From a virus, in the IMG/VR virus record IMGVR_UViG_3300014208_000031, positions 1 to 64,000 of that record: a stretch of DNA of 64,000 nucleotides. One strand, 5' to 3'. The translations under genes were made by a program, and so were the position numbers. Under the pieces are notes generated by a model, which was given only the letters and a program-made list of their open reading frames with translations, had not been told where the DNA came from and searched no databases. The stretch's first letter is position 1. Each line of letters opens with the position of its first letter. Of this stretch, positions 1,961-33,211 are shown piece by piece.

Positions 1961-2200
1961 ATGAAACACATTCCTAATCTAATAATCTTAATTTTGTGGG
2001 TGGCTATGTTTGTCGTTGGAATAATTAAACAAGACTACCTAACATTTCCTTTAATGTATTTATCGTGCGGAATGGTAGTCGCGGCAATTGGAATATTACA
2101 AAATAATCGTTTTTATCCTAAAATAATTCTATTTTGGCTGCCCGGATTATTTAGTGATAAATTAACTAATTGGATTTTGAATATTAAAAATAATGAATAA
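1961..2200 (+). CDS. Small membrane protein (2 TM); likely start MKHIPN at 1961
   Basis: Two hydrophobic stretches; the internal ATG avoids overlap with the upstream gene. Confidence 0.55.
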   Translation: MKHIPNLIILILWVAMFVVGIIKQDYLTFPLMYLSCGMVVAAIGILQNNRFYPKIILFWLPGLFSDKLTNWILNIKNNE

Positions 2201-2861
2201 ACATTTATACGTTTTGGGTGATATTCATGGTGAATTTGGTCAAATTAAACAATCTCTATTAAAACTAAATAAAAATCATTGGCCCGGCGATAGTTTTAGT
2301 TTAATTCAACTAGGAGATATGGGAATTGGATTTCCGCCGATGGAAAAACATCATGGAATTTGGCTATCAATTAAAGGTGAGCCGCGCGACCCTAAAGACT
2401 TTCCTAATAATTTTCATTTCATTAGGGGTAATCACGATAATTTAAAATATTGTAATAAATATCCTAATTACTTGGGAGATTATGGATTTAATAACGATTT
2501 AGGTATCTTTTATGTATCCGGCGCGGCATCACATGATAAAGCATTAAGAAAAGAAAATATAGATTGGTGGGCGGACGAAGAATTAAGTAATCAACAATTT
2601 TATGATTGCTTGGATTTGTATAGTAAAATTAAACCCAATATTGTAATTAGTCACGAGCCGCCAGTTGTAGCTCACGCGGCAATAAGAAAAGGCTTAGAGG
2701 TTAATAGTTCTAAAACTTCTCAAGCTTTACAATCTATGTGGGAAATTCATAAGCCTAATTATTGGTATTTTGGACATCACCATCTTATACTCAATAAAAA
2801 TATCCAAGGAACTAATTTTGTTTGTGTGGCTATCAATCAAGTAGTTAAAGTGAAACGATAA
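2193..2861 (+). CDS. Calcineurin-like metallophosphoesterase
   Basis: Ordered motifs LGDIHG, LGD, RGNHD, ISHE, FGHHH. Confidence 0.9.
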   Translation: MNKHLYVLGDIHGEFGQIKQSLLKLNKNHWPGDSFSLIQLGDMGIGFPPMEKHHGIWLSIKGEPRDPKDFPNNFHFIRGNHDNLKYCNKYPNYLGDYGFNNDLGIFYVSGAASHDKALRKENIDWWADEELSNQQFYDCLDLYSKIKPNIVISHEPPVVAHAAIRKGLEVNSSKTSQALQSMWEIHKPNYWYFGHHHLILNKNIQGTNFVCVAINQVVKVKR

Positions 2862-2901: not shown

Positions 2902-2931
2902 TTGACAGAATAGGGTGTTTCGTGATAGAAT
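2902..2931 (+). promoter_or_regulatory. sigma70-like early promoter
   Basis: TTGACA-N18-TAGAAT with an A-rich UP region, upstream of ORF 2980. Confidence 0.7.
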
Positions 2932-2979
2932 AAAAACGAGTGGAAATTTCCACAGTCTAAAACCTAACTAAACAAAACT

Positions 2980-3384
2980 ATGAATACTGCATATAAAAAT
3001 CTTGAACGTCAAACTTTTGAACCAAAGTCGGGAGTTAAATCAAATATGGATTCTGTGGCGCAAAGCATGGTTATTGAACCAGAATACAAAAAATCGTGGG
3101 CATTGCTTCGCCGTAATCCGAAAATTATCGCTGATTCTGTCCGTAATTCTCGCGCCGAGCAAGCCGAAAAGCTTACTAATCTTCTTACTATCTCCGAAAA
3201 ACAAAACTATGGAGTTAAGAAGTTTTTGGTAGTTAAGAAATTTCAAGGCTTGTTCGCGCCGATTGGATTCCGTCGGACGTTCAAGAAAATTGAAGATGTT
3301 ATTAAATTTGCTGCCACTGAAAATCGACAAACCGTGCGAGTTATTACTGGCGCAGTTAAAAAAGACTACCCAGTTAATAACTAA
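2980..3384 (+). CDS. Hypothetical basic early protein
   Basis: 134-aa ORF directly after the promoter, leader CTAACTAAACAAAACTATG. Confidence 0.7.
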   Translation: MNTAYKNLERQTFEPKSGVKSNMDSVAQSMVIEPEYKKSWALLRRNPKIIADSVRNSRAEQAEKLTNLLTISEKQNYGVKKFLVVKKFQGLFAPIGFRRTFKKIEDVIKFAATENRQTVRVITGAVKKDYPVNN

Positions 3385-3396
3385 ATAAACAATTTC

Positions 3397-3480
3397 GGGA
3401 TAGTGGTGGAACTGGATTACACAAGAGACTCAAAATCTCTCGGCAGAAATGCCATGCGGGTTCGACCCCCGCCTATCCCA
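3397..3480 (+). tRNA. trnL: tRNA-Leu(CAA)
   Basis: GGGATAG/CTATCCC acceptor, AGAGA-CTCAAAA-TCTCT anticodon arm, class II variable arm GGCA-GAAA-TGCC, GCGGG-TTCGACC-CCCGC T arm, discriminator A; CCA not encoded. Confidence 0.95.
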
Positions 3481-3503
3481 TATTTAACTAAATAAAACAA
3501 CCT

Positions 3504-3942
3504 ATGGACGCCAACGAATATCAAATTATTAAACTAACGTGTATTACGGAAGAAATTCAAAGTCTTAGCTGTGTGGAAATGGCGCAAAGACAATGGACAA
3601 TGGGGCGGCTACGTTTGGGAATTATTGCTTTGCGCGCAGATGCCGATAAAATCCGCCCGATTAATCCTGTTTTGTATGGTTTGATTAACAATTATAAGTA
3701 AAAATATGACTACTCAACCTAAATCTCAAAAAACTAAAGTTAAAGTAACAATCAAATACAGAATTTATTCTGTGGATGAAAAAGGAATGTTAAACCGCCC
3801 TCTTCATTCTGGATATGGTGGGAATGATTATCCTAAATATGATGATAGTAATTCAATTGAAGAAGCCGCGCGGCTAATTGAAGAAGCTGGGGATTATTCT
3901 GAATATATTATTCTTCCTGTAACAAATAGTAGTATTGGCTGA
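3504..3942 (+). CDS. Two hypothetical ORFs (3504-3701, 3706-3942)
   Basis: Co-oriented, closely spaced ORFs. Confidence 0.6.
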
Positions 3943-4048
3943 TTAACTAATTTTAAATACAAAATATGGATCATATTATTAATTCTCTTATAATTAGTTG
4001 TGTCTGTGCAGTAATTAATCTTTATATTACAATAAGAAATCTGATTAA

Positions 4049-4438
4049 ATGTCTATGAACTCTTTCTCTCAAGTAAATAAATCAGCTAAACGGGTTAGTA
4101 ATTGCTGCATTGCTGATCTAGCAACAGATAAGGAATATAAAAAATATATTTGTTGTAAATGTGGTAACAATTGCGAAACTATTTCTTTCTATGAACAACT
4201 AACTGAAAACCTAAGTAATATATTTTTAGGTGAGAAAATTCATTTAGATATTATGGATGAATCCGGCGGATTTAGAAATTCTGAAATTCTTATTCCAGCT
4301 AACAAAAAGATTACTAAAAGTTTAATTCAAAAAGTGGCAGCGAATTATCAAACTGCTGAATGCGACCCATCACCTATCCGAAATAAATTGCGTGAATATA
4401 TTAGTAAAACAGCCGCGCAGTTTGGAGTGGAATATTAA
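4049..4438 (+). CDS. Zn-ribbon fused to a stand-alone fragment resembling the RpoB lineage-specific insertion of Verrucomicrobia
   Basis: N-terminal SNCC...CCKC..C. The C-terminal LTENLSNIFLGEKIHLD...EILIPANKKITKSL...DPSPIRNKLREYI matches my recollection of Verrucomicrobia RpoB (LTE.LS.ILLGEKIPLDVV...EIIIPANRKITKTLL...DPSPIRNKI.EII). Confidence 0.7.
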   Translation: MSMNSFSQVNKSAKRVSNCCIADLATDKEYKKYICCKCGNNCETISFYEQLTENLSNIFLGEKIHLDIMDESGGFRNSEILIPANKKITKSLIQKVAANYQTAECDPSPIRNKLREYISKTAAQFGVEY

Positions 4439-4450
4439 ACATTAAAAACT

Positions 4451-5341
4451 ATGAATATCCAATCAATCAAAACAGATACTTGTGAATTCTCAATAGGAAA
4501 TTTAGTAACGGCGGATCATCCTATCACGGTTTTAAATCCAGATAGAAATTTTAAAATATTTCAAATTGAATGTGATTCCCGGCACGTAAGAGTCCGCGGC
4601 GAAAATACTATGTGGTTTGGAGAATCATTAGTTACAAAAGTAAAAGAATAGTTAAAAAATGAGAAATTTATCCTTACTAATGTGTATCGGCGCGGCTTTT
4701 ACGATTCACTCTTATCCACCCGAATTTAACTATACAATTAATAATTTAAACAAGGGTGCCGGGCGGCGGACAAAACGAAAAGTGAAAGGTTGTTCTTTTG
4801 GTCAAAGTGCTGGTCAAAAGCTAAATAAAAAATATGGATAAACTTTTCCTAACAAGAAAAAGCTACGATTATATCGTAACAAACTATCATAATTTAGCAC
4901 GGCGGTTACAAAAAGAATTTACTGTAAGAAATTGGAGTGTTGCCGGAGTTACTTATCATGGAATTAGTAATGAATTGGTAAAGGAAGTTGAGAAAAAGTT
5001 ATCTGAACAACCAGTATTAAAAGAATAAATAAAATATTATGGCACAATTTAAATATATTATTGTTGATTTGGGCGATGGGATTGAAATGCCTATCATTTT
5101 CTCTAAACTAATTAAACATGATTATATGGCAGGGAAAATGGGCGGGGTTCAATTAGTAAAGTCCGCCGGGTTTTTTAATATAGAAACGCAAGAATGTATT
5201 GCCCAAGATAATTTGGGCAATGATAAAGATGGAACCGAATTTATATTCTTTTGTTATGGAGAAAGTATTGGCTTAAAGGTAAAATCGCGCGGACAAGTTG
5301 ATTCAGATATTATTAAAAAAGATTATCAATTTGAAGTTTAA
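4451..5341 (+). CDS. Four small hypothetical ORFs (4451-4651, 4659-4841, 4834-5028, 5039-5341)
   Basis: Contiguous co-oriented ORFs. Confidence 0.6.
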
Positions 5342-13816: not shown

Positions 13817-14056
13817 ATGAATCCCATCGAAAAACGCATAGAAGAAATCAAAGCTTCGCAAAAGCTGTCACCGGAAACAAAGGCGCGCATGATTGGCAAC
13901 GTGATTAACGCTTACATTGCCGAGCACGAAGAGAAGCAACGCCAAGAAGCCGTCAAAGCAAAGTGGTTTGGCTTTTTTGACCGCGCCAAGCTTGCCGGAT
14001 ATACGCCAACGAGAGAAGACATGGAACGTGTCACGCGGGGAGAATTGCCACTTTGA
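13817..14056 (+). CDS. Hypothetical protein (likely start MNPIEKR at 13817)
   Basis: Leader GAAAACTAAAAATGAA is shared with the next gene. Confidence 0.65.
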   Translation: MNPIEKRIEEIKASQKLSPETKARMIGNVINAYIAEHEEKQRQEAVKAKWFGFFDRAKLAGYTPTREDMERVTRGELPL

Positions 14057-14102
14057 AACACTGTCAGTAAAACCAAACCAAAACAAACCACGAAAACTAA
14101 AA

Positions 14103-15167
14103 ATGAAAAACTCAGACTATAAATCCACGCTAGCCGCCGTTACTAAATGCTTCGCGCACCTAGTAGGGTGCGGGGAGTTGATTCAGATGATGATTGAGGG
14201 AACGATGTCACTCTTTAAGGGTGGCGAGGGATTCAGCGGCACATTGATTGCAGAAGCGGGCAAAGGGAAAAGCGCCGTAATGATTGCTTACGGGAAAGCT
14301 TTGGAGGTGATTGGCTACGAAGTGATTTTCTGTACGCCAAGTGAATTCCGCAAAGACGGTGACGAGGTTTATGGAACGATTAAAAACATGATCTGTGAGC
14401 GCGGGAAGGAATACGCGCTTTTGATTGATGAAGCGCACGAACTTTACGGTGCGGGAAGTACGGTACAACTAAAGAAAATCGGTAGTCTCGCCATGAAAGG
14501 TTTGGACGGCAATTTCTCCGGCGGCACGATTGCCCTTGGTGACAACATGGTCGCGAGCTTTAACCGCCGCAATTGCGTTATCATGCTGGCCACTAATCAC
14601 CCTTCCCGTTTGCCCGATGCTTTGAGCGCCGAGAACGGCCGTACGGTGCGCTATGTCATGCCCGACTACACGGTGCCGCAATTGAAAACGATTTTTCGTC
14701 GTATGCTTACCCGTTTCGATTTGGAGGTGAGCGATGACAAAGCCGCTAAGCGTATCGTGGATTGTGCGCGTGGTACTGCGCGCCCCTTGGAAAAAATCAC
14801 CCGTCAACTCTCAATCACCTTGGGCAGCGGGGAGAAAGCGCGGAAAAGCGTAAAGCCCGATGATGTCACGAACGCCTTGCGCTCCCTTCAAATGTTTCCA
14901 CGCGGTCTCAACATTACTGAGATGCAGATGCTAAAGGTGCTTGCTAACGCGCCCTTGTCGGACGCTCGCCTTGGCCAGATGTTTCCCAACGTGGATAAAG
15001 CCGAGATTCGCAAGTCTCGCGCCTACCTCATGAATTGCGGTACTGAACCAGACGCTAAGGGCAAGGTCGGCATTCCTTTCGTCTCTCCCGTCGTTGGCGG
15101 TTGCGCCACCACTGACAAGGGTAAGCGTTTTCTTGCCGATTGCGCCGCCCTTGGTTTCCACGCCTAA
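14103..15167 (+). CDS. RuvB-like AAA+ ATPase (Holliday junction branch-migration helicase family)
   Basis: Walker A AEAGKGKS, Walker B LLIDEAH, MLATN (sensor 1), YTVPQL, ARGTARP (sensor 2, cf. RuvB SRGTPR), PRGL and C-terminal winged-helix ATTDKG. Start 14103 chosen from the leader. Confidence 0.8.
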   Translation: MKNSDYKSTLAAVTKCFAHLVGCGELIQMMIEGTMSLFKGGEGFSGTLIAEAGKGKSAVMIAYGKALEVIGYEVIFCTPSEFRKDGDEVYGTIKNMICERGKEYALLIDEAHELYGAGSTVQLKKIGSLAMKGLDGNFSGGTIALGDNMVASFNRRNCVIMLATNHPSRLPDALSAENGRTVRYVMPDYTVPQLKTIFRRMLTRFDLEVSDDKAAKRIVDCARGTARPLEKITRQLSITLGSGEKARKSVKPDDVTNALRSLQMFPRGLNITEMQMLKVLANAPLSDARLGQMFPNVDKAEIRKSRAYLMNCGTEPDAKGKVGIPFVSPVVGGCATTDKGKRFLADCAALGFHA

Positions 15168-15192
15168 GCGAAACAACTAAGTATCTATTCAA

Positions 15193-15612
15193 ATGAATAT
15201 TCAATTCTACGTATCTGTAACGGGAGCGAAAACTCCAAAGCAGATTGCGAAAGAAGTGGCCGAAATTGTCGCCTATCGTGACGCGTTGAAAGAGGCGGGG
15301 ATTGATTGCGACAACGCCCCACAACGCCCCATGATTGCGCGCAGTGCCTCGCCAGCATCGTTTTCCACTGACAAGACAGCCGATTGCCTTGAATTGGAGA
15401 ATCAATGGCAGGAAATGACAGGGAAAGGCTTTCGCTGCTCACCAGAAATGGCTGCAATGTTTAGCCTTCCTGATGATCGTGCCGGACGCATCGCAAAAAT
15501 GATAGAGCTAGTGAAAGCGGGAAAAGCGGTTCGTACGGTGTCAGGTTGGATGCCAAGCAATGGAGAATCCAAGGGGCAATCACAAGCGGATGATGGGGCA
15601 GAAACGTTCTAA
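15193..15612 (+). CDS. Hypothetical protein
   Basis: 139-aa ORF co-oriented after the RuvB-like gene. Confidence 0.7.
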   Translation: MNIQFYVSVTGAKTPKQIAKEVAEIVAYRDALKEAGIDCDNAPQRPMIARSASPASFSTDKTADCLELENQWQEMTGKGFRCSPEMAAMFSLPDDRAGRIAKMIELVKAGKAVRTVSGWMPSNGESKGQSQADDGAETF

Positions 15613-15750
15613 ACAAATAAACAAGTATATGATAACCCGAATCATTAATCACTTGCGTTGTATCGCAAGAAAGCTACGCTCGCACAAAGCTATCGCGCCC
15701 CACATCCACGGCATTGCCCGCGAACTATACTTAGAGAAATAAACAAATAT

Positions 15751-15939
15751 ATGTCAATCCATAGAGATATTCATAGGCTTGCGATAAGCAAAAGAAAGTA
15801 CGTTGCTAAGCAAGCAAAACGATTAGACCTAGACCTCCGCGCAAAAGAAAAGTGCAAACTAATGCTAACCATTGCGCGAGTAACAGGGGAAGCTATTGGA
15901 CTAGAAAGGGCTTTAGAGATTATGTCAGAAACTAGATAA
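15751..15939 (+). CDS. Small basic hypothetical protein (likely start MSIHRD); a short ORF 15629-15742 precedes it
   Basis: Both are preceded by similar AAATAAACAA(G/A)TATATG leaders. Confidence 0.5.
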   Translation: MSIHRDIHRLAISKRKYVAKQAKRLDLDLRAKEKCKLMLTIARVTGEAIGLERALEIMSETR

Positions 15940-15963
15940 GTAAATAAACAAGTAAGTAAAGAG

Positions 15964-16003
15964 AGAACCGTTTGCCTAATCAGTAAGCGGTTTCTTTCTG
16001 TAC
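15964..16003 (+). terminator. Intrinsic terminator closing the early region
   Basis: AGAACCGTTTGC...GTAAGCGGTTTCT followed by TTCTGTAC. Confidence 0.8.
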
Positions 16004-16630
16004 ATATAGAGTGTCCGTATTAGTCAATTCCAAGTCTAGCTATTAAGTAAGTTAGAGTTGATTGTGATAGGGTTAAGTATAGATATTGAGAGTGTTAGGC
16101 ATGGCATCCGTACTTATTGGAAGTTTGAAAAGTCATTTTCCAGGAAAACGCCGCCACGGGGTTATCTTTGTTAAAATATCTTTTTTTAATCAAAACCAGA
16201 GTAAATTTCCTATTTCTAAATAAATCTCTAAAAATCTGGTAATTTATCATATTCAGTTCTATACAAAATCAAAAAATAAAATCGGAACGTTCCCCTTGGA
16301 GACCTTTTCTCTAGAAATAAAATTTATCTTTATTTACTTGTTTGTTTCTTTATTCTACCTTTTCTCTCCAACAATAAACTTCTTTATACTACCCTACCCA
16401 TTTTTCTAAAATTCTGGAAAACATCTATATTTACTTATCTCGAAATCCAAAAAAATTCGGAAGGGTTTTCTCTGAAAACGATTTCCTCTAGAAGTCTTTT
16501 CCTAAAAACTTAAAAAATCTTATTTACTTTAGCCGCCGCGATTAAACTAAAATTAATTTTCCTTTATGTCCGAAACGATGAGGCGTCTAACATGGAAATT
16601 TACACTACTTGAGATTTTTTAAAAAATTAG

Positions 16631-16658
16631 TTTGATTATATTAAGAAAAAAGTGTAAA
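16631..16658 (+). promoter_or_regulatory. Phage late promoter motif (bipartite)
   Basis: TTTGA-N15-AGTGTAAA upstream of 16710; the AGTGTAAA core precedes most structural genes. Confidence 0.75.
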
Positions 16659-16709
16659 TAAAGTATAAGTTTTATTATATAACAAATTTAAAAGAAAAAT
16701 AAACAATTT

Positions 16710-17446
16710 ATGCCAGCACAATTTATTCAATCGCAAACGTTTGTCTTGCTTACCGGTTCTGTTGCATCTTCTGGCTCGTGGATGGATATTGACAAAACAT
16801 TTAATAATACAGTATTTTATAGATTTAGTGGATTAGCCACAGGCTCAACTGCAACATTTGTGCTGGAAGCTCGTGATCCGGCTGGTAACGGCGGATATAT
16901 TATTGATACTATTCCTTTAACTGGAGTAAATATTACGAATATTGCTACTTTTAGCACTCCTGTAACCAATGGAGTAAGAGCAAATATTCAAAATATTACT
17001 AATGGTTCAGGATATTGTTATCTAGATTGTAGTTATTAACTAATAAAAATATGTCATCACAATCTACTAATAAGTTAAGAAAAATAGGAGAATATTATCA
17101 ACCAGGGGTTACCCCTGTTGGCGCGGAAGCTGGAGCGATCTTGGTCAACAGCGCCGCTTACGAAGCCTCCCACGTTCTAAAATCTAGCAGCGGAACACTG
17201 ATTGCCGTGGTCGGCTACAACAGTGGTCCCGCGCAGTTCATCCAGCTTCACAACGCCGCGAGCCTTCCCGCCGATGCCGAAGTGCCGATTTTACTATTTG
17301 CCGTCGCCGCTACGAGCAACTTCTCACTCACCATCCCACTTACCGGCCTGCCGCTCTCGACCGGCATCGTGGTCTGTAACTCAAGCACCGGCCCGACCAA
17401 GACGATCGGAGCGGCGGATTGTTGGTTCACGGCGGTTGTGAAATAA
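16710..17446 (+). CDS. Two small beta-rich virion-associated proteins (16710-17039, 17051-17446)
   Basis: S/T/G-rich beta-type sequences downstream of the late motif. Confidence 0.55.
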
Positions 17447-18840
17447 TGGACGCCGACGCTCAAGACTACATCGACCGGCGCGCGCTGGCTGGCGATACTT
17501 TGAGCGCCGCCGATCAAGCAGCCTTCAATGCGCTGGTTGTTGAACTAAAAGGCGGCGGGCAGTGGGATAATCTGGTCGAGCTTTGGACGCCTTGCGGCGG
17601 CACCTTTACCGGGGCGATGGTGAAGCTCAAAGACTGCGGTTCGGGTAACTGCATCAATACCGATTTCGTCTCTGGCGACTTTAACGCCATCACGGGATTG
17701 CTCGGCGACGGGGTAAGCAAGCGCCTTTCTACCGGAACGATCCCAAGCGACCACGGGGTGACAGGCGCAAATATCGCGTTGGGCGTGTTTGTGAGCGGCA
17801 CCGCGGCAGACTCGCGAGGCCAAAACATTGCCCTTGGCGACGGATCAACATTCTTTTTCCCGGAGTTTTCGGGGTCGATTATTTTTAACGGCGGTTTGAT
17901 GAGTAACGCCGCCGCTACGGAGGGCTTCCACATTCTCACACGCGAGGCCGGTAACGTGTCGAAATACTTCCACAACGGCATCCTGATGGACAGCAACAAC
18001 ACGCAGGGGCCAGTATCTCCAGCGGCGGAAGTCACAGTCGGCAGCTATGGAGCGGGATTCTATTACGTGGGGCGAATCCGGTGCTATTTCATCGCCACTG
18101 ATTTACTGGAGGCCGACGTGGTAGCGATCACCGAAGCATTTGAAACCTTCGTTGGCCGTATCGCCGCCAGCCGACGCACGGGCCTATATGGTGCCTTTGG
18201 CGATTCGATCACTTTCGGACTCAACGCCTCCGATGCAGCCCACGAATACGCCTCGCTGGTTGCCACAGGGCTCAGCCTGACGCTGAGCAAGCAGGGAATC
18301 TCCGGCATACCGCTTTACGGAACCCATACCTCCTACCAATCCGGCCAGTGGTCCGTCATTTCCCGCATCTGCGACCGCGCTCCGACAAAGGTGACGCTGG
18401 CTTACGGAACCAACGACGTAAATAGCGCCGATACCAACCTCACCGCCGCAGTATTCCAGTCGTCCGCTTCTGCCACGCTCGGGCGCATCATGCGGATGTG
18501 TGGACTGACGGGCTCGGATGTGACCATCACCGGCCCGACCCGCGTGACATCGGGCTATGCAGGGCAAGGCGACGATACGCGCGCCCTGGCCTTTGCCGCC
18601 GCCGCCGAAGCTGCCGCCGTCGCCGAAGGATGCCAGTTCGCCGCCGTCCGCGCCGCCATGATCTCGGAGGCGGTGACGCCGACTGATGGCATCCACCCCG
18701 ACGACGACGGGCATGTAGTATGGGCGGATACGATTCTCGCCGCATTCGCGAGCGCCCAAGGCGCCGCCACGAGCGGTCTTGGCTCCTCCGGCCTCATCGG
18801 CGGCACCCAACTCGGCGCGGAGGGGCTTGGCCCAAGTTAA
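17446..18840 (+). CDS. ConA/LamG-like plus SGNH/GDSL hydrolase virion protein (start ATG 17446)
   Basis: SGNH blocks AFGDSIT, GISG, YGTND, DGIHP; GC-rich DNA. Confidence 0.8.
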   Translation: MDADAQDYIDRRALAGDTLSAADQAAFNALVVELKGGGQWDNLVELWTPCGGTFTGAMVKLKDCGSGNCINTDFVSGDFNAITGLLGDGVSKRLSTGTIPSDHGVTGANIALGVFVSGTAADSRGQNIALGDGSTFFFPEFSGSIIFNGGLMSNAAATEGFHILTREAGNVSKYFHNGILMDSNNTQGPVSPAAEVTVGSYGAGFYYVGRIRCYFIATDLLEADVVAITEAFETFVGRIAASRRTGLYGAFGDSITFGLNASDAAHEYASLVATGLSLTLSKQGISGIPLYGTHTSYQSGQWSVISRICDRAPTKVTLAYGTNDVNSADTNLTAAVFQSSASATLGRIMRMCGLTGSDVTITGPTRVTSGYAGQGDDTRALAFAAAAEAAAVAEGCQFAAVRAAMISEAVTPTDGIHPDDDGHVVWADTILAAFASAQGAATSGLGSSGLIGGTQLGAEGLGPS

Positions 18841-18899
18841 TTGGGATTACCGTTCACGGGTAGTAATAATGCAAGTTACTAATTTAAAAATTAAAAAAT

Positions 18900-20297
18900 A
18901 TGTCATTAATTAATACACGACAGTTGAGACAAATTTCTTCTACAAATTCTACATCTAGTTCTTCGACGAGCGTAGATTTATTTACATCATCTAAAATTAT
19001 TTATGTAACTAAAGATGCTTTAGCAACAGATACTCGCGGCAGCTATAGTAAATACGATTTTTTTAAACCGTTTGCTACTTTAGCAGCGGCAAAAACGGCG
19101 GCGGCAAGCGGAGACGTTATTTATGTAGGGCCGGGTTCTTATACGGTTACAGATAGTATATTAAAAAATGGAGTTAATTGGCATTTTGTAGTCGGGGCTA
19201 TCGTGACGTTCACTAACCCTGCTTCTGAATACGGACTACTCGATGACAATGGAGCGGCGATAACCACACGCATCAGCGGATATGGAGATTTTATTAGAGA
19301 AGAGTCTAGCAATACCGTCAGCGGGATTCACGCTAGAGTTGTTGGCGTGAAACATGCGGATACGAATGTTTTTATTCAGGCGCGAGAAATCAAATTTTTG
19401 TCAACCGCAACAACAAGTTCGGCATATTGTCTTTGGCAGGAATCTGGAGTTATGCACGTCGAGGCGAAGAGGATGTTCGCTAACGGATATACGGGTATTA
19501 TCATCGGGTGGCTTAACGGCCCCGGATTTGTGCGATGCGACGAGATGATCTGCAACGCTGCCGCTGTATATTTTCAATGCGACGCTACGCCAACAGGCGA
19601 CCTCTATATTGACGCTCAGTTCATCGATGTGACCCTTGGGGGGACATCGCAGCCAAGTTATGCGATTTGGAATAATGGAACCGATACCACCGCCGGAGTT
19701 TGGATTCGCTGTGCTGTCCTAAAGGGTACCGCGGCCACTTCCACATCTCGCTCAATTTTGTGTTCGGCTGGGTCGGGAAATAAGGTTTATGTAACTGCTC
19801 AAAAGATTTGGGGAAACGCGCAAATCGACGGAAGCGGAATCACCTACATTACAGCCGATAAATGGACAGCTACGCAAAACGGAGGCGTAAGCCAAGCATT
19901 ATTCTACAAAAGCAGTGGGAGTGGATTAACCTTCTTGTCCGTTAAACACTACGATCCATCTACATTCACGGGACACGCATGGCGAGCGGCTAGCGGCACG
20001 GTGCAAATTATTGATGGAACTTACATTGCCGCGTCTGGTGGCGGAATCTTATGTGCATCGTCGGCAGTTATTAAATTGCGCGGAATGTCCATAGATACGA
20101 CTGCTAACTCAGCGGTAAGCGCAGTAACTGTGAGCGGCGGAACATGCACCTTAATCGCTTCTGAACTTTTAGCCCACGCTTCGGGGGTAGACATAGGGCA
20201 GTCGGGAGGAACTGCTCAAGTTGCTGGCGGGTATGGAAGTGGAACCAACGGTAATTTTAGAACTAGTGGAACCGTTGGAGTCCTTGTCCCCATATAA
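18900..20297 (+). CDS. Beta-helix (pectin-lyase-like) tailspike or appendage protein
   Basis: Cap motif KPFATLAAAKTAAASGDVIYVGPGSY followed by G/S/T-rich beta repeats. Confidence 0.6.
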   Translation: MSLINTRQLRQISSTNSTSSSSTSVDLFTSSKIIYVTKDALATDTRGSYSKYDFFKPFATLAAAKTAAASGDVIYVGPGSYTVTDSILKNGVNWHFVVGAIVTFTNPASEYGLLDDNGAAITTRISGYGDFIREESSNTVSGIHARVVGVKHADTNVFIQAREIKFLSTATTSSAYCLWQESGVMHVEAKRMFANGYTGIIIGWLNGPGFVRCDEMICNAAAVYFQCDATPTGDLYIDAQFIDVTLGGTSQPSYAIWNNGTDTTAGVWIRCAVLKGTAATSTSRSILCSAGSGNKVYVTAQKIWGNAQIDGSGITYITADKWTATQNGGVSQALFYKSSGSGLTFLSVKHYDPSTFTGHAWRAASGTVQIIDGTYIAASGGGILCASSAVIKLRGMSIDTTANSAVSAVTVSGGTCTLIASELLAHASGVDIGQSGGTAQVAGGYGSGTNGNFRTSGTVGVLVPI

Positions 20298-23596: not shown

Positions 23597-24394
23597 ATGC
23601 AGAAAACAAAAAGTCGGAGTAATGCTAACAACGGAGAGAAGAAAGACAATAGCCAATTCGTGTGGCAGCGTAGTAAAATAGATTTTGAATTATCAATACG
23701 AACTAGACCAGATTTTACGGAACATCAAAAAGAAGTTATAGATTTAATCCTAAACAAGAAAAATAAAGTTACTCTTATTTCGGGTCCGGCGGGCTGTGGA
23801 AAAACAATGCTTGGGTTGTACTGCGCTTTACAATTACTTAATACAAAACGCATCTCAAAAATTACTTATTCGCGTCCAATGTTAGAATCTTCCGATCCAG
23901 GTTCTAAGCTCGGAATGCTCCCCGGATTTATTGAAAATAAGCTGGAGCCATATGCGGCGGTAATGAATTATCTTTTAGAAGAACTTTTACCAGCAGGAGA
24001 TATTAAAAAGTTAAATAGCGATGAACGAATCGAAGTTATTCCGGTTAATTATATCCGCGGATTAACGCTATCAAATGATTTTTGCATTTTTGATGAGGTT
24101 AGCTCCTTTACGCTACATGAATTAAAAACGCTTTTGTCACGCGTTGGACCCCATTCCAGAGTAATTTGTCTTTCTGACCCTGGGCAAAGTGACCTTCCAT
24201 TAAATAAACAGGGTGGATTTGAAAAACTAATTAAATTATTTGGTGACGATGCTAGTAAAGAGATGGGAATAAATACCGTTTATTTTACAGAGGAAGAAAT
24301 TGTTAGGTCTGAGATTTGTAAATTTATGGTTACAAAGTTTAAAGAACTAGACGGAACAAGAGATTTATCCAAGTCACCGATGTTTGAAAGCTAA
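23597..24394 (+). CDS. phoH: PhoH-family ATPase
   Basis: GPAGCGKT, YSRP, LGMLPG, KLEPY, YIRGLTL, DE, LSRVG, DPGQSD, IVRS. Confidence 0.93.
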   Translation: MQKTKSRSNANNGEKKDNSQFVWQRSKIDFELSIRTRPDFTEHQKEVIDLILNKKNKVTLISGPAGCGKTMLGLYCALQLLNTKRISKITYSRPMLESSDPGSKLGMLPGFIENKLEPYAAVMNYLLEELLPAGDIKKLNSDERIEVIPVNYIRGLTLSNDFCIFDEVSSFTLHELKTLLSRVGPHSRVICLSDPGQSDLPLNKQGGFEKLIKLFGDDASKEMGINTVYFTEEEIVRSEICKFMVTKFKELDGTRDLSKSPMFES

Positions 24395-25583
24395 TATGTT
24401 AAAAACTCCTACCAAGTTTATAATTTACGAAATTCTTAATTTGAAGAATGGAAAATATTATATTGGAAGAACTAAAGGAAAGAACGGAACAATAGGTCGA
24501 TGGTCAGTTCATGTTGCTCATGCCAAATACGGAGAAAGGTATAATAAAACTTATTTTGAGAAAAATGGAAAAAGCAAACAAACTGGAAACTGTTATTTTT
24601 CAAGAGCGATTAGAAAATACGGTCAAGAAAATTTCAGAGTCAGAGTTATTGATTATGCGATAGATTTTAAACATATGGTTTGGCTGGAAGGGTTTTATAT
24701 TAAATATTATAATTCTAACAATCAAAAATATGGATATAATTTGATTATAGATAGATATGGAGATGGACTAGAATTTATTTCCGAGGAAACTAGCAATAAA
24801 TTAACAAATAGTCTTCACCAAACGAAAAGAAAACCGTCTAAAAGCGGTTGGCGGGGAGTTCACTATGGAAATACGGACGGAAAGCATAATACTAATCCTT
24901 GGTCTGTATCAGTTACGTTTAAAAGAAAGCTTTTCCGTAAAAGAGTAGAAACATTAGAGATAGCTATAGACATTTCAGATAAAATTGCTTTATTTCTTTA
25001 CGGAGATAACGCGCGATTGAATTTTCCTGAAAAAATTAGCGAGTATAAAAACTCAGACTTACAAAAAACATTTGATTGGTTTATTTATACTCGTCCGGTT
25101 TCTTCAGATTTTTTAGGAGTTTTTTACAACAAAAATGATAAAAAGTTTTCTTCTAGGGTTAAAGAAATTGGCAAAGGTGAAACAAGATTATATTTAGGTG
25201 AATATGATTTAGAAATAGACGCAGCTATTATCCATGATAAAATTTGTTGGTATCTGTATAAAGATTCTTTTGTTTTGAATTTTCCAGAAAATATAGAGAG
25301 ATATGAGGAAGAAGATTTGGAAAAACTCTATAACTATTATAAAAATAGTATAAAACAATTCAATCGAGAAACTTCTTCTAATTTTCGCGGTGTATCTAAA
25401 CATGGGCAAAGAGAGAATGGTTATTGTTGGGAGGTAAGACATAACGGTTCTAGGAATAGGGGTTTTTCTACTTCTGAGATAGAAGCTGCTCAATCTTATG
25501 ATAAGAAAGCGGTAGAACTTTTAGGCTTGAAAGCTAAAACTAATTTTCCCATCGAAAATTATCTAACAATAGAAACTAATTAA
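24384..25583 (+). CDS. GIY-YIG homing endonuclease with three AP2-like DNA-binding domains
   Basis: IIYEILNLKNGKYYIGRT...GYNL; repeats S.(W/F)(R/L)GV...AA..(Y/H)DK...(L/T)NFP. Confidence 0.85.
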   Translation: MKANMLKTPTKFIIYEILNLKNGKYYIGRTKGKNGTIGRWSVHVAHAKYGERYNKTYFEKNGKSKQTGNCYFSRAIRKYGQENFRVRVIDYAIDFKHMVWLEGFYIKYYNSNNQKYGYNLIIDRYGDGLEFISEETSNKLTNSLHQTKRKPSKSGWRGVHYGNTDGKHNTNPWSVSVTFKRKLFRKRVETLEIAIDISDKIALFLYGDNARLNFPEKISEYKNSDLQKTFDWFIYTRPVSSDFLGVFYNKNDKKFSSRVKEIGKGETRLYLGEYDLEIDAAIIHDKICWYLYKDSFVLNFPENIERYEEEDLEKLYNYYKNSIKQFNRETSSNFRGVSKHGQRENGYCWEVRHNGSRNRGFSTSEIEAAQSYDKKAVELLGLKAKTNFPIENYLTIETN

Positions 25584-25939: not shown

Positions 25940-26974
25940 ATGGAAGATATTAGTAAAAATTTAAGTTTAGAAGATTTGCCGGGCGAGATATGGAAACCTA
26001 TAACTCATTTTGATATAGCGGAAGGACATGAGGTTTCTAATTTGGGGAGAGTTCGTTCTCGCTATAAAGAATTTAATTTAGAGAATGGTAAAAACTTTTA
26101 TATCAAAGAGAGAGTTAAAAAACAAAGTTCTAGATGCGGGTACCGTGCCGTTAGATTTACTTTAAAAGACGGTAGTAACCAATTATTTAGAGTCCACAGA
26201 ATAGTAGGTGTCACCTTTTTACCAATAGATAATTATTTAGAACTAGTAATTCACCACAAAAATTTTTGTAGAAACGATAATAGGAGTGATAATCTAGAAT
26301 GGGTGACAATTGCCAAAAATAATCGTTATACCTTTTTGGGTACTACTAAAGAATATGTAAAAAATAACCAACGACCGATTAAAGAAAAAATTAAGTTAGA
26401 AATTCCTAAAATATTTTCTTGTAAATATAGTTTAGAAGGCGAAATATGGAGGGATGTTGACGGGTTTAAAGATTGGTATCAAATATCTAATTATGGAAGG
26501 GTTAGATCGTTAGATAGATTAACTATACATAAAGATGGCGGCAACATTTACAGAAAAGGTAAATATTTAAACCCCAAATATGATAGTAACGGATATTTGA
26601 ATATAATTTTATACAAATACAATAAAGCTTATAGAAGATTACTTCATAGATTAGTAACTTTAGCTTTTTTAGAAAACCCTAATGAATTAAAAGAGGTCAA
26701 TCACAAAAACTGTAATAAGTCGGATAACAAATTAGAGAATCTTGAATGGTGTTCTCGTCAACAGAATGTTAGACACGCTGTTGAGAATAATTTATGTGAT
26801 TGCAATAACGGGGAAGGAAATCCCCTATCTAAATTAAAAAATGATGATATTTTAAGAATGCGAGAATTAAGAGATAAAGAGCATTTAAGTATGCAAAAAT
26901 TATCTAGGATTTTTAATACCACTGAAAGTAATATTTCTAGTATTCTCAATAGAAAAACCTGGAAACATATCTAA
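25940..26974 (+). CDS. Tandem NUMOD4-HNH endonuclease (two modules) with C-terminal HTH
   Basis: Two copies of GEIW...(V/I)SN(L/Y)GRVRS...HR(I/L)V...HKN...DN...NLEW. Confidence 0.9.
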   Translation: MEDISKNLSLEDLPGEIWKPITHFDIAEGHEVSNLGRVRSRYKEFNLENGKNFYIKERVKKQSSRCGYRAVRFTLKDGSNQLFRVHRIVGVTFLPIDNYLELVIHHKNFCRNDNRSDNLEWVTIAKNNRYTFLGTTKEYVKNNQRPIKEKIKLEIPKIFSCKYSLEGEIWRDVDGFKDWYQISNYGRVRSLDRLTIHKDGGNIYRKGKYLNPKYDSNGYLNIILYKYNKAYRRLLHRLVTLAFLENPNELKEVNHKNCNKSDNKLENLEWCSRQQNVRHAVENNLCDCNNGEGNPLSKLKNDDILRMRELRDKEHLSMQKLSRIFNTTESNISSILNRKTWKHI

Positions 26975-27651
26975 TGGCTAATTCTGATAGCGGTTCTGAT
27001 GACTTCTCAGGCAATATAAAACAGATAAATAATTTAATTAGTATAAAATTATCAAAATGGCATTTGTCAGCGGGGATTCCATCTATTTCACCGGAGGACA
27101 TCCGGCAATTACTTTTAATTCACGTACACCGTCAGTGGGAAAAATATAATAAGGAACTTCCTTTGGGAAATTGGTTGAACACGGTTTTAAAAAACAGAAT
27201 ATTTAATTTACAGAGAGAATTTTATCATAAATACGCCCATATTTGCGCTGGATGCCCCTCGAATTCGGGCGGACAATGTAAAATTTTTGGAAATATCGAA
27301 TCCGAGGATTGTAATTTGTATAAAAATTGGAGATTAACTAAAAAAGCATCCTATGACGTTAATTTACCCGTATCTTTAGAAAATCATCTTTTGCAAGTTA
27401 GCTCCATGCCCTTTCAAGAAATCAATTTTGATGATCAACTAGAACATTTAAAAATAAAACTCCAAACAAAACTTTCTCAAAATGACTACAAAATATTTCT
27501 AGGTTTATACATAGATAATAAAACTGAAGCTGAATTAAGTAAAGAATTGGGATATAAAATAAGTACTAAAACTGAAGTTAATAGACAGATTAAGAATGTT
27601 AAGGCTACAATTTTGGACGTTGTTAAGAAAATATTAAAAGAAGAAGATTAA
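26974..27651 (+). CDS. Phage sigma70-family RNA polymerase sigma factor with Cys-rich insert
   Basis: Region-2-like EDIRQLL...WLNTVLKNRIFNLQR; region-4 HTH LSQNDYKIF...KTEAELSKELGY; CAGC..C..C between them. Confidence 0.75.
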   Translation: MANSDSGSDDFSGNIKQINNLISIKLSKWHLSAGIPSISPEDIRQLLLIHVHRQWEKYNKELPLGNWLNTVLKNRIFNLQREFYHKYAHICAGCPSNSGGQCKIFGNIESEDCNLYKNWRLTKKASYDVNLPVSLENHLLQVSSMPFQEINFDDQLEHLKIKLQTKLSQNDYKIFLGLYIDNKTEAELSKELGYKISTKTEVNRQIKNVKATILDVVKKILKEED

Positions 27652-30031: not shown

Positions 30032-33000
30032 ATGTCTTTTATCGAATCCCCAGCCTCGCCCAAAATTATTACAGATGTAAATGCTGAAATTTTATCCTTA
30101 CAAGGTTTTTTAGAGGATGAGCCAAATAAATATTATTTAGCGAAATTTTTAGAAAATAATTTAGCATTTACGATGAATTTACTCACGGGCGCGGATGGTA
30201 AAGGAATTGAGATGTATCCATTTCAAGAAATTTTACTCAAAATGTTATTTGACAAGGATAATGTTTTAACTATATGCGGAAGAGGTATCGGGAAATGTCT
30301 TCAGTATTCTAATTCAACATATTTAATAGAAAAAAATACGGGTTTTTCTCATATTAAAAATATTTTGCCTAATTTAAAATTTAATCAAGATGAAGAATTA
30401 GAAAATATAAATCGGTTAGAATTATGGAATGGGGACTCTTGGCAATCAACATCTAGAATTCTAAAACAGTCAAAAAAAGATAGCGCCACGGTAGTTACAA
30501 GTTTGGGGTATAAATTAGGGGGATCAACTAATCATCTGATTAAAGTTTTAGATGAAAAAATATGTAGAATAGTTTGGAAACGTTATCACGAATTAAAGAT
30601 AGGGGATAAAATTTGCGTAGATAGAAGTGAGCCCGAGTGGGAAATAGAATCTATAGAGGACGACGAAGCTTATTTTGTCGGATTGCTTTTGGGAGATGGA
30701 TGTATCTCTGCTAGAGCTTATTCTATATCTTCAGCAGATAAACAAACAATTGATTTTTGCGTAGAAAAATATAAGTGTAAAATTATTCCAGACAAAAGAT
30801 CGTCTGCGTGTTGCTCTATAAGAGTTAATACTGAAATCAGTCAATGGTATAAACAAAAATATGATTTTAAAGAGGAATTATCTTATTTCAAAAAGATACC
30901 GCAAAGAATATTAAAATCTAAAAAAGCTACAAAGAATTGCCTTCAAGGTTTATTTGATTGTGATGGGTCGGTTTGCAAAAATGGTACAATTATAGATTTT
31001 TGCTCAACCTCGGAAGAAATGGCATACCAAGTTCATACGCTGCTTCTGACTTTTGGGATTACTAGTAGAATTCGATTAAAAACAACAAAATCTAAATTTG
31101 GTAAAGCTTGGTTGGTTTATATTACCGGGGAAAATTGTAAGAAATTTATGGAGAAGATAGGTTTTAGACTATCTAGAAAAAATAATTTAGCTTTAAAATA
31201 TTTAGCGTTAAATAAAAAATTTAATACTAATAATAATGTTGTTTACGGTGCTAATGAACAGATGTCTCTTGTTAAGAAATCTTTAAAGATGATTGGTGAA
31301 ATGTCAAATGAATGGCATACCAAACATAGAAAAAGAAGAAAAAGTCAGCAGAAAGAAATTAGTTATGAACGACTAAGTAGTGTATTAGATTTTTTTAAAC
31401 GGAATGAAGTAAATAATGACATTATCAATGATTTATTGGAAATAGAAAAAACTAATTATTTTTTTGATCCAATTGTATCAATAGAATTATATCAAGATGA
31501 TTGCATTGATTTTTGTGATATTCCTAATGGAAATTGTTATTGGTCTAATGGTTTTTTAAGTCACAATACAACTATTGCCGTTTGGTTTATTGCGCTGTAT
31601 TGCATTTTATACCCTAAGACTAAGATAGGAATACTTTCACCGAGCTTTCGTAAATCACGAGATATTTACAAGGGCGTTGAGGATTTAGCTGGAATGAAGG
31701 GCGCGCATTTATTGAGACAATGTATTAAAGATAAAAAACAAGCGCCGGATTTGTGTTGGATGCAGTTTGAAAACGGTTCAGAAATATTTAGTTTGCCTTT
31801 AGGATCGAGCGGCGAAAAAATTCGCGGCTACAGATTCCAGGTCGTAATTTTGGATGAAGCCGGGTTCGTACCAGAAAAAATTATTACAAATGTTATAATT
31901 CCCTTTTTGAGTACAAACTTTGATCCAATAGAGAGAGAAAAAACCAGAAATAGAGAAAATGATTTGATTGCTAAAGGTTTAATGACGGAATCGGATAGGA
32001 TGATATATAAGAATAATAAATTTTTAGCCTTTAGTTCGGCAACATATCAATTTGAATTTTTATATCAAATGTATAAGAATTATAAAAAATCTATTCTTGA
32101 TCCAAAGCCAGACCAGTTTGCTTCTTATGGTTTATTTCAGATGAGTCATGAAGCCGCGCCGGAAGGATTATTAAATAAAGCTTCTACAGAAAATGCTAAA
32201 AATTCTCTTTCTTCAATGGAATTTCAAAAAGAATATTGCGGTCAATTTCCGGCGGACTCAGATAGCTATTTTAAGATGTCTAAAATGGAAGATGCAACCG
32301 TACCATCAGGCGAAGACCCATCTATTGAGATAGTAGGAGAGAAAAATGGTAAATATTTGGTTTCTATTGACCCCAACAGTATGAACGACGCGACCTCAAG
32401 CGATCATTTTGCGATTTCTGTATTTAAGTTAAACATGGAAGACAATACAACTGTTTTGGTTAATCAGTTTGCCGCATGTGAGCTAAATATCATAGATTAT
32501 GTTTGGTATTTTTCATATATTCTAGAAAATTTTAATGTTGTTATGGTGGTACTAGATGAAGCTGGTGGCGGGACTTTTATAAATGTTTGTAACGAATCCA
32601 TTCAATTTAAAGAAAAGAATTTAAGGTTAGAATTTTTTAGTGCAGATTTTGATGTTGATCCTAAAGAATATGTCAAAGAATTAAATAGGGCTAGACGAGA
32701 CTATAACCTAACCAGTAAAAAGATTTGCTATTCTCAATATTTTCTTAATCCATTTAAATTAGCCGCCAACGAGCATTTAAAATATTGTATTGAATATAAG
32801 AAAATGCTTTTTGCTTCAAAACCACATGAGATTAAAGAGGAAAAAATGTTGAAAACTCATATTCCAAATTTTGATAAACTTAAATTTATATCTGGAGAAG
32901 ACTTTGATCAAAAAATGTCTAACGATGATATGCAAAAAATTAGAAGACAGGATTTTATAGACCATCAAGTATTTTTAATGAAAGATGTAAAATGTCAATG

Positions 33001-33211
33001 TGCTCTTATAGAATTAAGACCAGAAGGAAACAGTATTAAACTTGAATTACCATCAAATATTCGTCGTTTGCGTGGCATTAATATGGTGCGTCGCGATTTG
33101 TGGACGAGCCTATTTTTAGGAAATTATATGGCTAAGAGATATTTTGATATGATGTCCACGGACGACAGATTCAACTATAATTCCAACTGGACTCCTTCAA
33201 TCGTAGGTTAA
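30032..33211 (+). CDS. terL: Terminase large subunit containing an intein
   Basis: Walker A GRGIGK|T split by the intein, IRG, Walker B VVILDEA, EYCGQF, nuclease motifs VSIDP and DHFAI. Confidence 0.92.
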   Translation: MSFIESPASPKIITDVNAEILSLQGFLEDEPNKYYLAKFLENNLAFTMNLLTGADGKGIEMYPFQEILLKMLFDKDNVLTICGRGIGKCLQYSNSTYLIEKNTGFSHIKNILPNLKFNQDEELENINRLELWNGDSWQSTSRILKQSKKDSATVVTSLGYKLGGSTNHLIKVLDEKICRIVWKRYHELKIGDKICVDRSEPEWEIESIEDDEAYFVGLLLGDGCISARAYSISSADKQTIDFCVEKYKCKIIPDKRSSACCSIRVNTEISQWYKQKYDFKEELSYFKKIPQRILKSKKATKNCLQGLFDCDGSVCKNGTIIDFCSTSEEMAYQVHTLLLTFGITSRIRLKTTKSKFGKAWLVYITGENCKKFMEKIGFRLSRKNNLALKYLALNKKFNTNNNVVYGANEQMSLVKKSLKMIGEMSNEWHTKHRKRRKSQQKEISYERLSSVLDFFKRNEVNNDIINDLLEIEKTNYFFDPIVSIELYQDDCIDFCDIPNGNCYWSNGFLSHNTTIAVWFIALYCILYPKTKIGILSPSFRKSRDIYKGVEDLAGMKGAHLLRQCIKDKKQAPDLCWMQFENGSEIFSLPLGSSGEKIRGYRFQVVILDEAGFVPEKIITNVIIPFLSTNFDPIEREKTRNRENDLIAKGLMTESDRMIYKNNKFLAFSSATYQFEFLYQMYKNYKKSILDPKPDQFASYGLFQMSHEAAPEGLLNKASTENAKNSLSSMEFQKEYCGQFPADSDSYFKMSKMEDATVPSGEDPSIEIVGEKNGKYLVSIDPNSMNDATSSDHFAISVFKLNMEDNTTVLVNQFAACELNIIDYVWYFSYILENFNVVMVVLDEAGGGTFINVCNESIQFKEKNLRLEFFSADFDVDPKEYVKELNRARRDYNLTSKKICYSQYFLNPFKLAANEHLKYCIEYKKMLFASKPHEIKEEKMLKTHIPNFDKLKFISGEDFDQKMSNDDMQKIRRQDFIDHQVFLMKDVKCQCALIELRPEGNSIKLELPSNIRRLRGINMVRRDLWTSLFLGNYMAKRYFDMMSTDDRFNYNSNWTPSIVG
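30296..31567 (+). mobile_element. Intein (424 aa) with LAGLIDADG endonuclease, inserted in the terminase P-loop
   Basis: Begins GK|CL and ends SHN|T; motifs FVGLLLGDG and LQGLFDCDG. Confidence 0.93.

Follow-up and report, generated by a model that had tools for sequence, protein, structure and literature searches.

A stand-alone homologue of the RpoB beta-i9 tip of Verrucomicrobiota encoded by a large uncultured phage

The RNA polymerases (RNAPs) of bacteria carry large lineage-specific insertions, the functions of which are mostly unknown. One of them is beta-i9 of the beta subunit RpoB (Lane and Darst nomenclature; also SI2, or dispensable region II), which has been described as dispensable from the 1980s onwards. 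Why should a phage carry a gene for a piece of such an insertion? This question is raised by a short gene at positions 4049 to 4438 (plus strand) in the first 64,000 bases, here called the window, of the uncultured phage record IMGVR_UViG_3300014208_000031 in IMG/VR, which comprises 167,664 bases and is 100% complete according to CheckV. A preliminary description of the window, made from the letters, had recognised in this gene a stand-alone copy of the insertion near the beta-i9 position of Verrucomicrobia RpoB, and had proposed that its product is a polymerase mimic or decoy. The identity of the protein, its distribution and the roles that it may play are considered here.

Relation of the phage protein to the beta-i9 insertion

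The whole open reading frame (ORF; 4049..4438, +) encodes 129 amino acids (aa), and its read-through confirms the residues quoted in the preliminary description. The window protein is referred to as P0001, its database copy as P0002 and the orthologues as P0003-P0010. Since P0002 and P0003-P0010 all align from the second methionine, the probable true start is the second ATG at position 4055, which gives a product of 127 aa. A search of 5.8 billion proteins returned about ten orthologues (124-142 aa, 49-61% identity), three further small relatives with different N-termini, and three full-length RpoB proteins with expectation values (E) of 9.5e-10, 2e-8 and 3e-7, one of which bears the NCBI name of a Verrucomicrobiales metagenome-assembled genome (MAG). 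In pairwise BLASTP, residues 41-126 of P0001 matched residues 911-992 of the Verrucomicrobiales RpoB with 45% identity over 86 residues (E 7e-21), so that the resemblance to RpoB noticed at first is significant. The matched segment falls within Pfam PF00562 (Rpb2 domain 6), where RpoB exceeds the profile by about 140 residues. When residues 800-1090 of RpoB were compared with PDB chains, the polymerases of Thermus, Mycobacterium and Bacillus, which are without beta-i9, gave two-part alignments with RpoB 889-1005 left out; the whole region is covered by E. coli beta 850-1121. In E. coli, beta-i9 corresponds to residues 938-1042 and is absent from Thermus (Opalka et al. 2010, PMC2939025). The phage match at 911-992 consequently lies wholly inside beta-i9. 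Sequence searches thus identify the window gene as one encoding a stand-alone homologue of the beta-i9 insertion tip of Verrucomicrobiota RpoB, and the position of the match bears out what had been proposed.

The tip-homologous domain, with short stalk remnants, covers aa 44-129 (4178..4435, +), and the window ORF matches the domain profile A2 at E 3.8e-39. The distal part of the Verrucomicrobiota beta-i9 is 45-59% identical to the phage domain and shows the same order of helix, two strands, helix, strand and helix. The phage form differs in that it is a free protein of 127-129 aa and not a part of a subunit of 1250-1350 aa, that only about 13 and 17 residues remain of its stalk helices, and that a Cys-rich segment stands in the place of the N-terminal stalk. 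As a protein it is not an RpoB, the 129-aa ORF being without any Pfam Rpb2 domain, and the tip of E. coli beta-i9, a short 'hook', bears no resemblance to it. P0001 has no significant family in Pfam or PHROGs, where the PHROG matches reach only E 0.03-0.08; phmmer found no match among PDB sequences, tblastn found none in 50,697 GenBank phage records, and neither P0001 nor the RpoB tip nor two other phage versions are matched by a PADLOC model. A profile search revealed no second copy of the domain in the phage genome, which gives one per genome.

The tip profile also gave weak matches to BBM2 repeats of beta-i4, of which the best, to the Francisella chain 6wmp_C (E 3.8e-4), is marginal, and those to Vibrio 3e7h, Pseudomonas-type chains and one beta' module are weaker still. 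Tip and BBM2 have in common the pattern D-x-V-x(2,3)-T-G-E-x-I-x-x-A-x(3)-I-T, over an overlap of about 30-45 residues. This weakly suggests that the tip may be a BBM/BEAN-type unit located where E. coli has its short hook. With the BBM2/BEAN modules of RNAP beta and beta' (Iyer et al. 2004; PMC11515920) there is weak profile likeness only, whereas the close kin of the phage domain is the beta-i9 of one phylum, not BBM2 generally. A separate observation is that the Bacteroidota-type RNAP beta-i9 (9n9p_C at about 940-965; 9n9q and 8dkc are similar) aligns weakly with RpoB P0016 at about 935-960, sharing with 9n9p_C the pattern GE-x-V/I-L-P-x-x-KK-x-T; a diverged tip unit may exist beyond Verrucomicrobiota.

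The structure of P0001 was modelled with AlphaFold2 from a 110-row alignment. Residues 45-129 have a predicted local distance difference test score (pLDDT) of about 95 and form a helix at 47-59, strands at 68-70 and 79-82, a helix at 90-98, a strand at 103-105 and a helix at 109-125. In the model and the alignment, the helix of aa 47-59 (4187..4225, +), which aligns with RpoB 914-926, is the remnant of the first 'ladder' helix, and that of aa 109-125 (4373..4423, +) the remnant of the second. Between them lies the alpha/beta tip unit, aa 60-106 (4226..4366, +), with the motifs GEKxPLD, PANRKITK and DPSP. Prediction and superposition of the structure had been proposed at the outset; the prediction yielded a confident model of the tip, and structure searches with it no significant match. 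Foldseek found no match to the model in the PDB at E<=0.001, and in a wide search with VIA-align the best Z of 5.2 went to unrelated helical channel segments, the beta-i4 fragment 3e7h reaching Z 3.6. The weak structural rows from RNAP beta are beta-i4, and structure comparison was therefore unhelpful. A predicted complex between the RpoB beta-i9 segment and residues 40-129 of the phage protein scored 0.00, which is not evidence either way.

Most of the positions that do not vary among RpoB tips hold polar or charged residues or proline; the invariant set is GEKxPLD, G74, E79, PANRKITK, K95, DPSPxRNK and E116. In the phage clade with the Cys-rich segment (the Zn-ribbon clade, described below) these residues recur at 80-100%, and in the remaining copies that are not RpoB, both small and fused, at about 57-98%. 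Retention of such polar residues suggests that a binding surface is conserved, beyond the fold alone.

The Cys-rich N-terminal region itself, aa 1-43 (4049..4177, +), consists in P0001 of a conserved basic motif, then CC, a variable loop and CxxCxxxC. Five cysteines, spaced as CC-(14 to 32)-CxxCxxxC, are kept across the ten orthologues as a two-knuckle ligand set, so that the Cys-rich stretch which had been noticed ahead of the tip-like domain is present and its ligand pattern conserved. It is probably a zinc knuckle or ribbon that caps the N-terminal end of the shortened helical stalk; residues 1-44 have pLDDT values below 50, leaving the putative zinc fold without a confident model, and no Pfam match. 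It is worth adding that the N-terminal (A)RVSNCC at window 4094-4108 (aa 16-20) aligns with the RpoB stretch (D)VRVSSRK that leads into beta-i9, and that the spacing from the RVS motif to the first conserved helix is about 37 residues in the phage protein versus 41 in RpoB. The cap may thus derive in place from the first stalk helix, although with three shared residues only, chance is possible.

Distribution in Verrucomicrobiota, phages and cellular proteins

With each species represented by a single genome, a genome scan yielded over 592 matches, and labels were taken from the best 80. Nearly all of these 80 are labelled Verrucomicrobiota, among them Verrucomicrobiales, Akkermansiaceae, Roseibacillus, Chthoniobacterales, Opitutales and Limisphaerales; three carry odd labels, and one of the three, L022 ('Actinomycetota'), has a tip identical to Chthoniobacter tips. 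Exactly one domain match was present in 296 of 301 representative genomes of the phylum, in an open frame of about 1250-1350 aa, the size of rpoB, and extra tip copies were found in none of the 301. In the isolate Persicirhabdus sediminis, the match lies inside a 1295-aa ORF followed by an rpoC-sized ORF. The host phylum to which the preliminary description had pointed is therefore the one in which the domain is at home, and the domain may serve as a sequence-based assignment to Verrucomicrobiota for a group of large uncultured phages. The domain does not allow the host to be assigned to an order, since identities to the various orders lie within a few percent of one another and this part of the tree is a polytomy. 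When 28 RpoB segments were aligned, the tip proved near-invariant across orders and the flanking stalk helices variable; such near-invariance of the tip of an exposed insertion argues for a binding function.

Beyond RpoB, a profile search of 1.84 billion cluster representatives returned 378 matches at E<=1e-3, 222 of them at E<=1e-10. The best 150 of the 378, together with proteins from earlier searches, made up a sample of 164 sequences that were classified against full RpoB: 37 are plain rpoB fragments, 17 have some RpoB-matching flank, 49 hold little beyond the domain and 61 have at least 25 residues of unrelated sequence. Some entries of the last two kinds are frameshifted rpoB pieces. P0022, P0023, P0024, P0030, P0042 and P0044, which are 92-100% identical to the RpoB tip and have low-complexity tails, were rejected as real architectures and are probably such frameshifted fragments.

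Besides the window, the domain occurs in small co-directional ORF arrays on at least seven phage-like contigs with 30-61% guanine plus cytosine (GC), as a survey of other phages, suggested at the outset, has now brought out. The 41.8-kb contig L084 resembles the window in having a Metallophos gene upstream of the homologue; L085 and L086 (78.8 kb) carry a 187-aa version; L097 (165 kb) also encodes RtcB, ribonucleotide reductase and endonuclease VII; L098 (215 kb) and L099 (57 kb) show phage-like small-ORF arrays; and the IMG/VR contig L105 carries a 108-aa version. Phage-like contigs of 165, 215, 57 and 18 kb encode proteins of 84-108 aa with hardly any sequence beyond the domain, and by this comparison the bare domain is sufficient in some phages. 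A scan of IMG/VR for exact peptide patterns found two further viral contigs only, which is an undercount, as the patterns had to be exact.

Another finding is that the tip is fused to cellular proteins of very different kinds. In many proteins it is joined to Sel1/TPR repeats, in one case along with ankyrin repeats; its other partners are a 1290-aa Ser/Thr kinase, a sacsin-type ATPase and an AAA_15/AAA_21 ATPase. Four fusions on bacterial metagenome contigs, all with the tip at one end of the protein, have likenesses or neighbours of defence type. An NsnB/AriA-like ATPase (L081 8001-10142; PADLOC NsnB 4.5e-36, AriA 6e-23) stands directly after hsdR-hsdM-hsdS of a type I restriction-modification system. 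A Tiamat TmtA-like protein of the sacsin type (L090 4109-7657; PADLOC E 1e-55) adjoins a DrmD-like SNF2-HEPN helicase. The 1290-aa kinase (L083 951-4823) matches the PADLOC models mad6 and PD-T4-6 at about 1e-45, which may reflect the generic kinase fold only, and a Sel1 protein (L108 9001-10317) lies 3.5 kb from brxA, brxB, brxC and brxE. No PADLOC model includes the tip domain. One copy with another architecture is annotated in an NCBI Chthoniobacterales MAG.

The window ORF has 31.5% GC, against 34.6% for the window and 43-60% for rpoB segments. It is thus AT-rich like the phage, as had been noticed, and this phage-like composition, unlike that of the rpoB segments, argues that the acquisition is old. 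A FastTree phylogeny of 221 domain sequences and 88 columns has poor resolution. It unites the ten Zn-ribbon phage proteins in a single clade (support 92), attached by a long branch outside the core RpoB cluster, gathers most of the remaining small phage-type copies in a second, loose group, and places several cellular fusions within RpoB subclades, with short branches. Compared with whichever RpoB tip is closest, members of the Zn-ribbon clade are 58-67% identical and the other small phage copies 43-69%; the kinase and several Sel1 fusions reach 81-91%, which points to recent and repeated capture. A branch with support 99 sets four divergent RpoB tips of the phylum apart from all other sequences. 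If these four are true outgroups, the core RpoB type would be the source of the copies, and the direction would be from host to phage and from rpoB to fusion. The picture is one of one or a few old captures by phages and of repeated recent duplications within bacteria, and the phage copy is, by these comparisons, old, compositionally adapted and maintained in several phage lineages.

Possible roles of the free tip

In E. coli, beta-i9 is a flexible arm that extends about 65 Å from the flap and is not near nucleic acid in models, and it has been proposed to bind unidentified regulators (PMC2939025). Its deletion causes mild phenotypes only, and its role is unclear (bioRxiv 10.1101/2020.06.16.155770). 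The tip described here is near-invariant throughout a phylum, its phage copies keep the polar residues and it has been copied into defence-type proteins, which together imply that the tip has a partner that matters. With the polar residues kept and the bare domain present in other phages, the window protein most likely acts as a free mimic that competes with the polymerase tip for the binding of the natural partner, a reading to which we assign a probability of about 45%. On this proposal, a piece of the host RNAP beta subunit, the distal beta-i9/SI2 'hook-and-ladder' tip in its Verrucomicrobiota form with short stalk remnants, would have been captured by the phage, and the N-terminal stalk end would have been capped by the Cys-rich, probably zinc-binding segment. 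The protein would probably be made early in infection from host-type promoters, the phage being one without its own polymerase. It would then engage the usual binding partner of the beta-i9 tip, which might be a regulator of the host, some other component of the transcription machinery or a sensor in defence, and would withdraw or block that partner. The decoy idea of the preliminary description gains plausibility from the domain-only phage versions, the retention of polar residues and the fusions to defence-type proteins.

The dependence on the host enzyme agrees with the gene content. The preliminary description had stated that no other RNAP subunit is in the window, and this holds for the entire 167,664-base record, in which neither RNAP beta domain 6 (PF00562) nor beta' domain 2 (PF00623) was found, while 14 of 14 control genomes were positive. 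A search for a T7-type RNAP (PF00940) gave no match, but neither did the controls, and it is therefore uninformative. A candidate host-type promoter, TTGACA-18 nt-TAGAAT with TG (11 of 12 matches; weak, from a consensus scan), lies at 2902..2931 (+), upstream of the co-directional block formed by small ORFs, tRNA-Leu and the window gene; the total of promoter-consensus matches in the region is not above that of shuffles. A phage-specific promoter word, AAAGKATATA, has nine copies in the window versus 1.1 expected, none of them between 1532 and 30013. A near-consensus promoter without AAAGKATATA nearby fits an early block transcribed by the host.

Several points weigh against the proposed mimicry. 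To our knowledge, no partner has been identified for beta-i9, nor for its tip in any bacterium, and the target to be titrated is accordingly undefined. In the window copy, two residues that are elsewhere invariant have been exchanged (P65->H and R86->K) and the hairpin loop is longer by 4 residues (75-78); the specificity of this copy may hence have drifted. The same domain sits in many cellular proteins other than RpoB, so that it could be a general adaptor with a partner unrelated to transcription. The Cys-rich N-terminus, conserved in the Zn-ribbon clade, could carry the real activity, and the promoter evidence consists of a consensus scan alone.

Among the alternatives, it is conceivable, though doubtful, that the tip docks on the host RNAP itself, either homotypically through the native beta-i9 tip or through a native docking site on the enzyme or sigma, and that it modifies transcription there or displaces host proteins. 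A phage without its own RNAP must reprogram the host enzyme, and the phage-specific promoter word and the sub-threshold sigma-like ORFs (see the last section) are in keeping with this. Very different cellular proteins share the tip, as would be expected of a shared docking handle, and the conserved extra N-terminal module of the Zn-ribbon clade could be the part that is delivered. The domain-only phage versions, on the other hand, have nothing to deliver, and E. coli beta-i9 has no fixed position on the enzyme (PMC2939025). A somewhat lower likelihood is given to a conflict with the tip-bearing defence proteins, which the free phage tip would either block or trigger as the signal that they sense. 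The fusions to a TmtA homologue, an NsnB/AriA-like ATPase, a mad6/PD-T4-6-like kinase and a Sel1 protein near brx genes speak for it, as does the recent and repeated capture indicated by fused copies 81-91% identical to RpoB tips. However, the informative contexts are only four, the kinase match may be one of generic fold, and the lack of a second copy in all 301 representative genomes implies that such proteins are rare.

It is likewise improbable, and to the same degree as such a conflict, that the phage has merely re-used an rpoB-derived fold as a scaffold for an unrelated purpose, for instance to bind nucleic acid or protein with a new specificity. The tip may be a distant member of the BBM2/BEAN class, whose insertion modules occur in several proteins (PMC11515920), the phage copies lie on long branches and are only 58-67% identical to any RpoB tip, and P0001 is altered at two invariant positions. 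However, the residues kept in RpoB, phage and fused copies match the RpoB-invariant set, and a new specificity would not predict this retention. Large phages can encode split beta and beta' subunits, and the gene could in principle be a piece of a phage multisubunit RNAP or else a non-functional rpoB remnant. This is very improbable: some ten orthologues, 49-61% identical, keep an intact frame with the invariant residues in place, the composition is phage-like with one copy per genome, the similarity is restricted to a lineage-specific insertion, and the 100%-complete genome holds no catalytic beta or beta' domain. A piece of a phage-encoded RNAP was rejected, as beta and beta' domains were missing genome-wide and found in all 14 controls.

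Free competitive mimicry of the tip, to return to it, would have counterparts elsewhere. Poxvirus K3L is a stand-alone mimic of the eIF2-alpha S1 domain and a pseudosubstrate decoy for PKR. As with K3L, a free viral copy of an essential host housekeeping domain is proposed to compete for the partner of that domain, whereas kingdom, protein and machinery differ, and the partner is known for K3L alone. Plant nucleotide-binding leucine-rich repeat (NLR) immune receptors carry integrated decoys, which are copies of host domains targeted by pathogens. The RNAP tip fused to TmtA-like, NsnB/AriA-like, kinase and Sel1 proteins resembles these decoys; this parallel concerns the cellular relatives and not the phage gene, and a sensing role is hypothetical. 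Small phage RNAP binders are T7 Gp2, AsiA and Alc of T4, Xp10 p7 and SPO1 Gp44 (for Gp44, PMC8208478). The window protein is like them in being small, probably early and from a phage that depends on the host polymerase, and its target may likewise be the transcription machinery; but they are not derived from a polymerase subunit, and no sequence, Pfam or PHROG similarity to them was found. In the literature, the coverage of which was incomplete for subscription journals, no phage-encoded copy of an RNAP insertion, no phage BBM module and no polymerase-derived decoy in defence proteins was found. Viral mimicry by a captured host domain is already known; a copied RNAP insertion that acts on the transcription machinery would be a new variant.

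Taking phage and cellular copies together, one may speculate, with reserve, that the beta-i9 tip is a contested surface between phage and host, of which phages from several lineages make free decoys or competitors and which bacteria have repeatedly duplicated from rpoB as integrated bait or sensor in immune-type proteins, namely those like TmtA of Tiamat, the ATPase like NsnB of Menshen and AriA of PARIS, the kinase like PD-T4-6 and mad6, and the Sel1 proteins near BREX. If true, this would be a bacterial counterpart of K3L-type mimicry and of the integrated decoys of plant NLRs, and would offer the first functional handle on a lineage-specific RNAP insertion. A true conflict with the defence proteins would further imply a new class of phage proteins for host takeover or anti-defence, made from a piece of the host polymerase, as well as a new kind of sensor domain in bacterial immunity. 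The small phage protein would be a ready-made affinity reagent for the partner of the tip.

Gene neighbourhood and other features of the phage genome

The gene stands within a run of small co-directional ORFs without family matches, just 3' of tRNA-Leu(CAA) at 3397-3480. Upstream of it, at 2193-2861 (+), is the Metallophos gene (calcineurin-like phosphoesterase, E 2e-9). On contig L084, within 2936-4485, Metallophos also lies upstream of the homologue, and is preceded by a gene of metallo-beta-lactamase fold with a weak match to Apyc1 (anti-Pycsar).

Matches to sigma-70 region 2 below the cut-off of 24 bits occur in the window at 26974-27651 (+) and outside it, in the phage record, at 163893-164021 (-). 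Their scores are 18.3 and 21.4 bits, and the Pfam E for the window ORF is 0.0078. These sigma-like ORFs may encode divergent phage sigma factors, and this would agree with a promoter word specific to the phage.

Among the other phage genes are those of a large terminase, of homing endonucleases and of a tail-fibre-like protein. The terminase ORF at 30032-33211 (+) encodes 1059 aa, of which the terminase PHROG covers residues 482-894 only, and its long N-terminal part matches a PHROG of unknown function. At least four genes of homing or HNH endonuclease type lie within the 64 kb (24384-25583, 25940-26974, 46565-48286 and 57086-58294), as called by PHROG and by Pfam NUMOD4 and HNH_3, and a PhoH-like ATPase is encoded at 23597-24394. 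Finally, an island at 14001-20000 has a GC fraction of 0.43-0.53 compared with about 0.31 elsewhere and may be recently acquired DNA; its ORFs are at 13917-15167, 17419-18840, which has a weak match to a tail-fibre PHROG, and 18900-20297.

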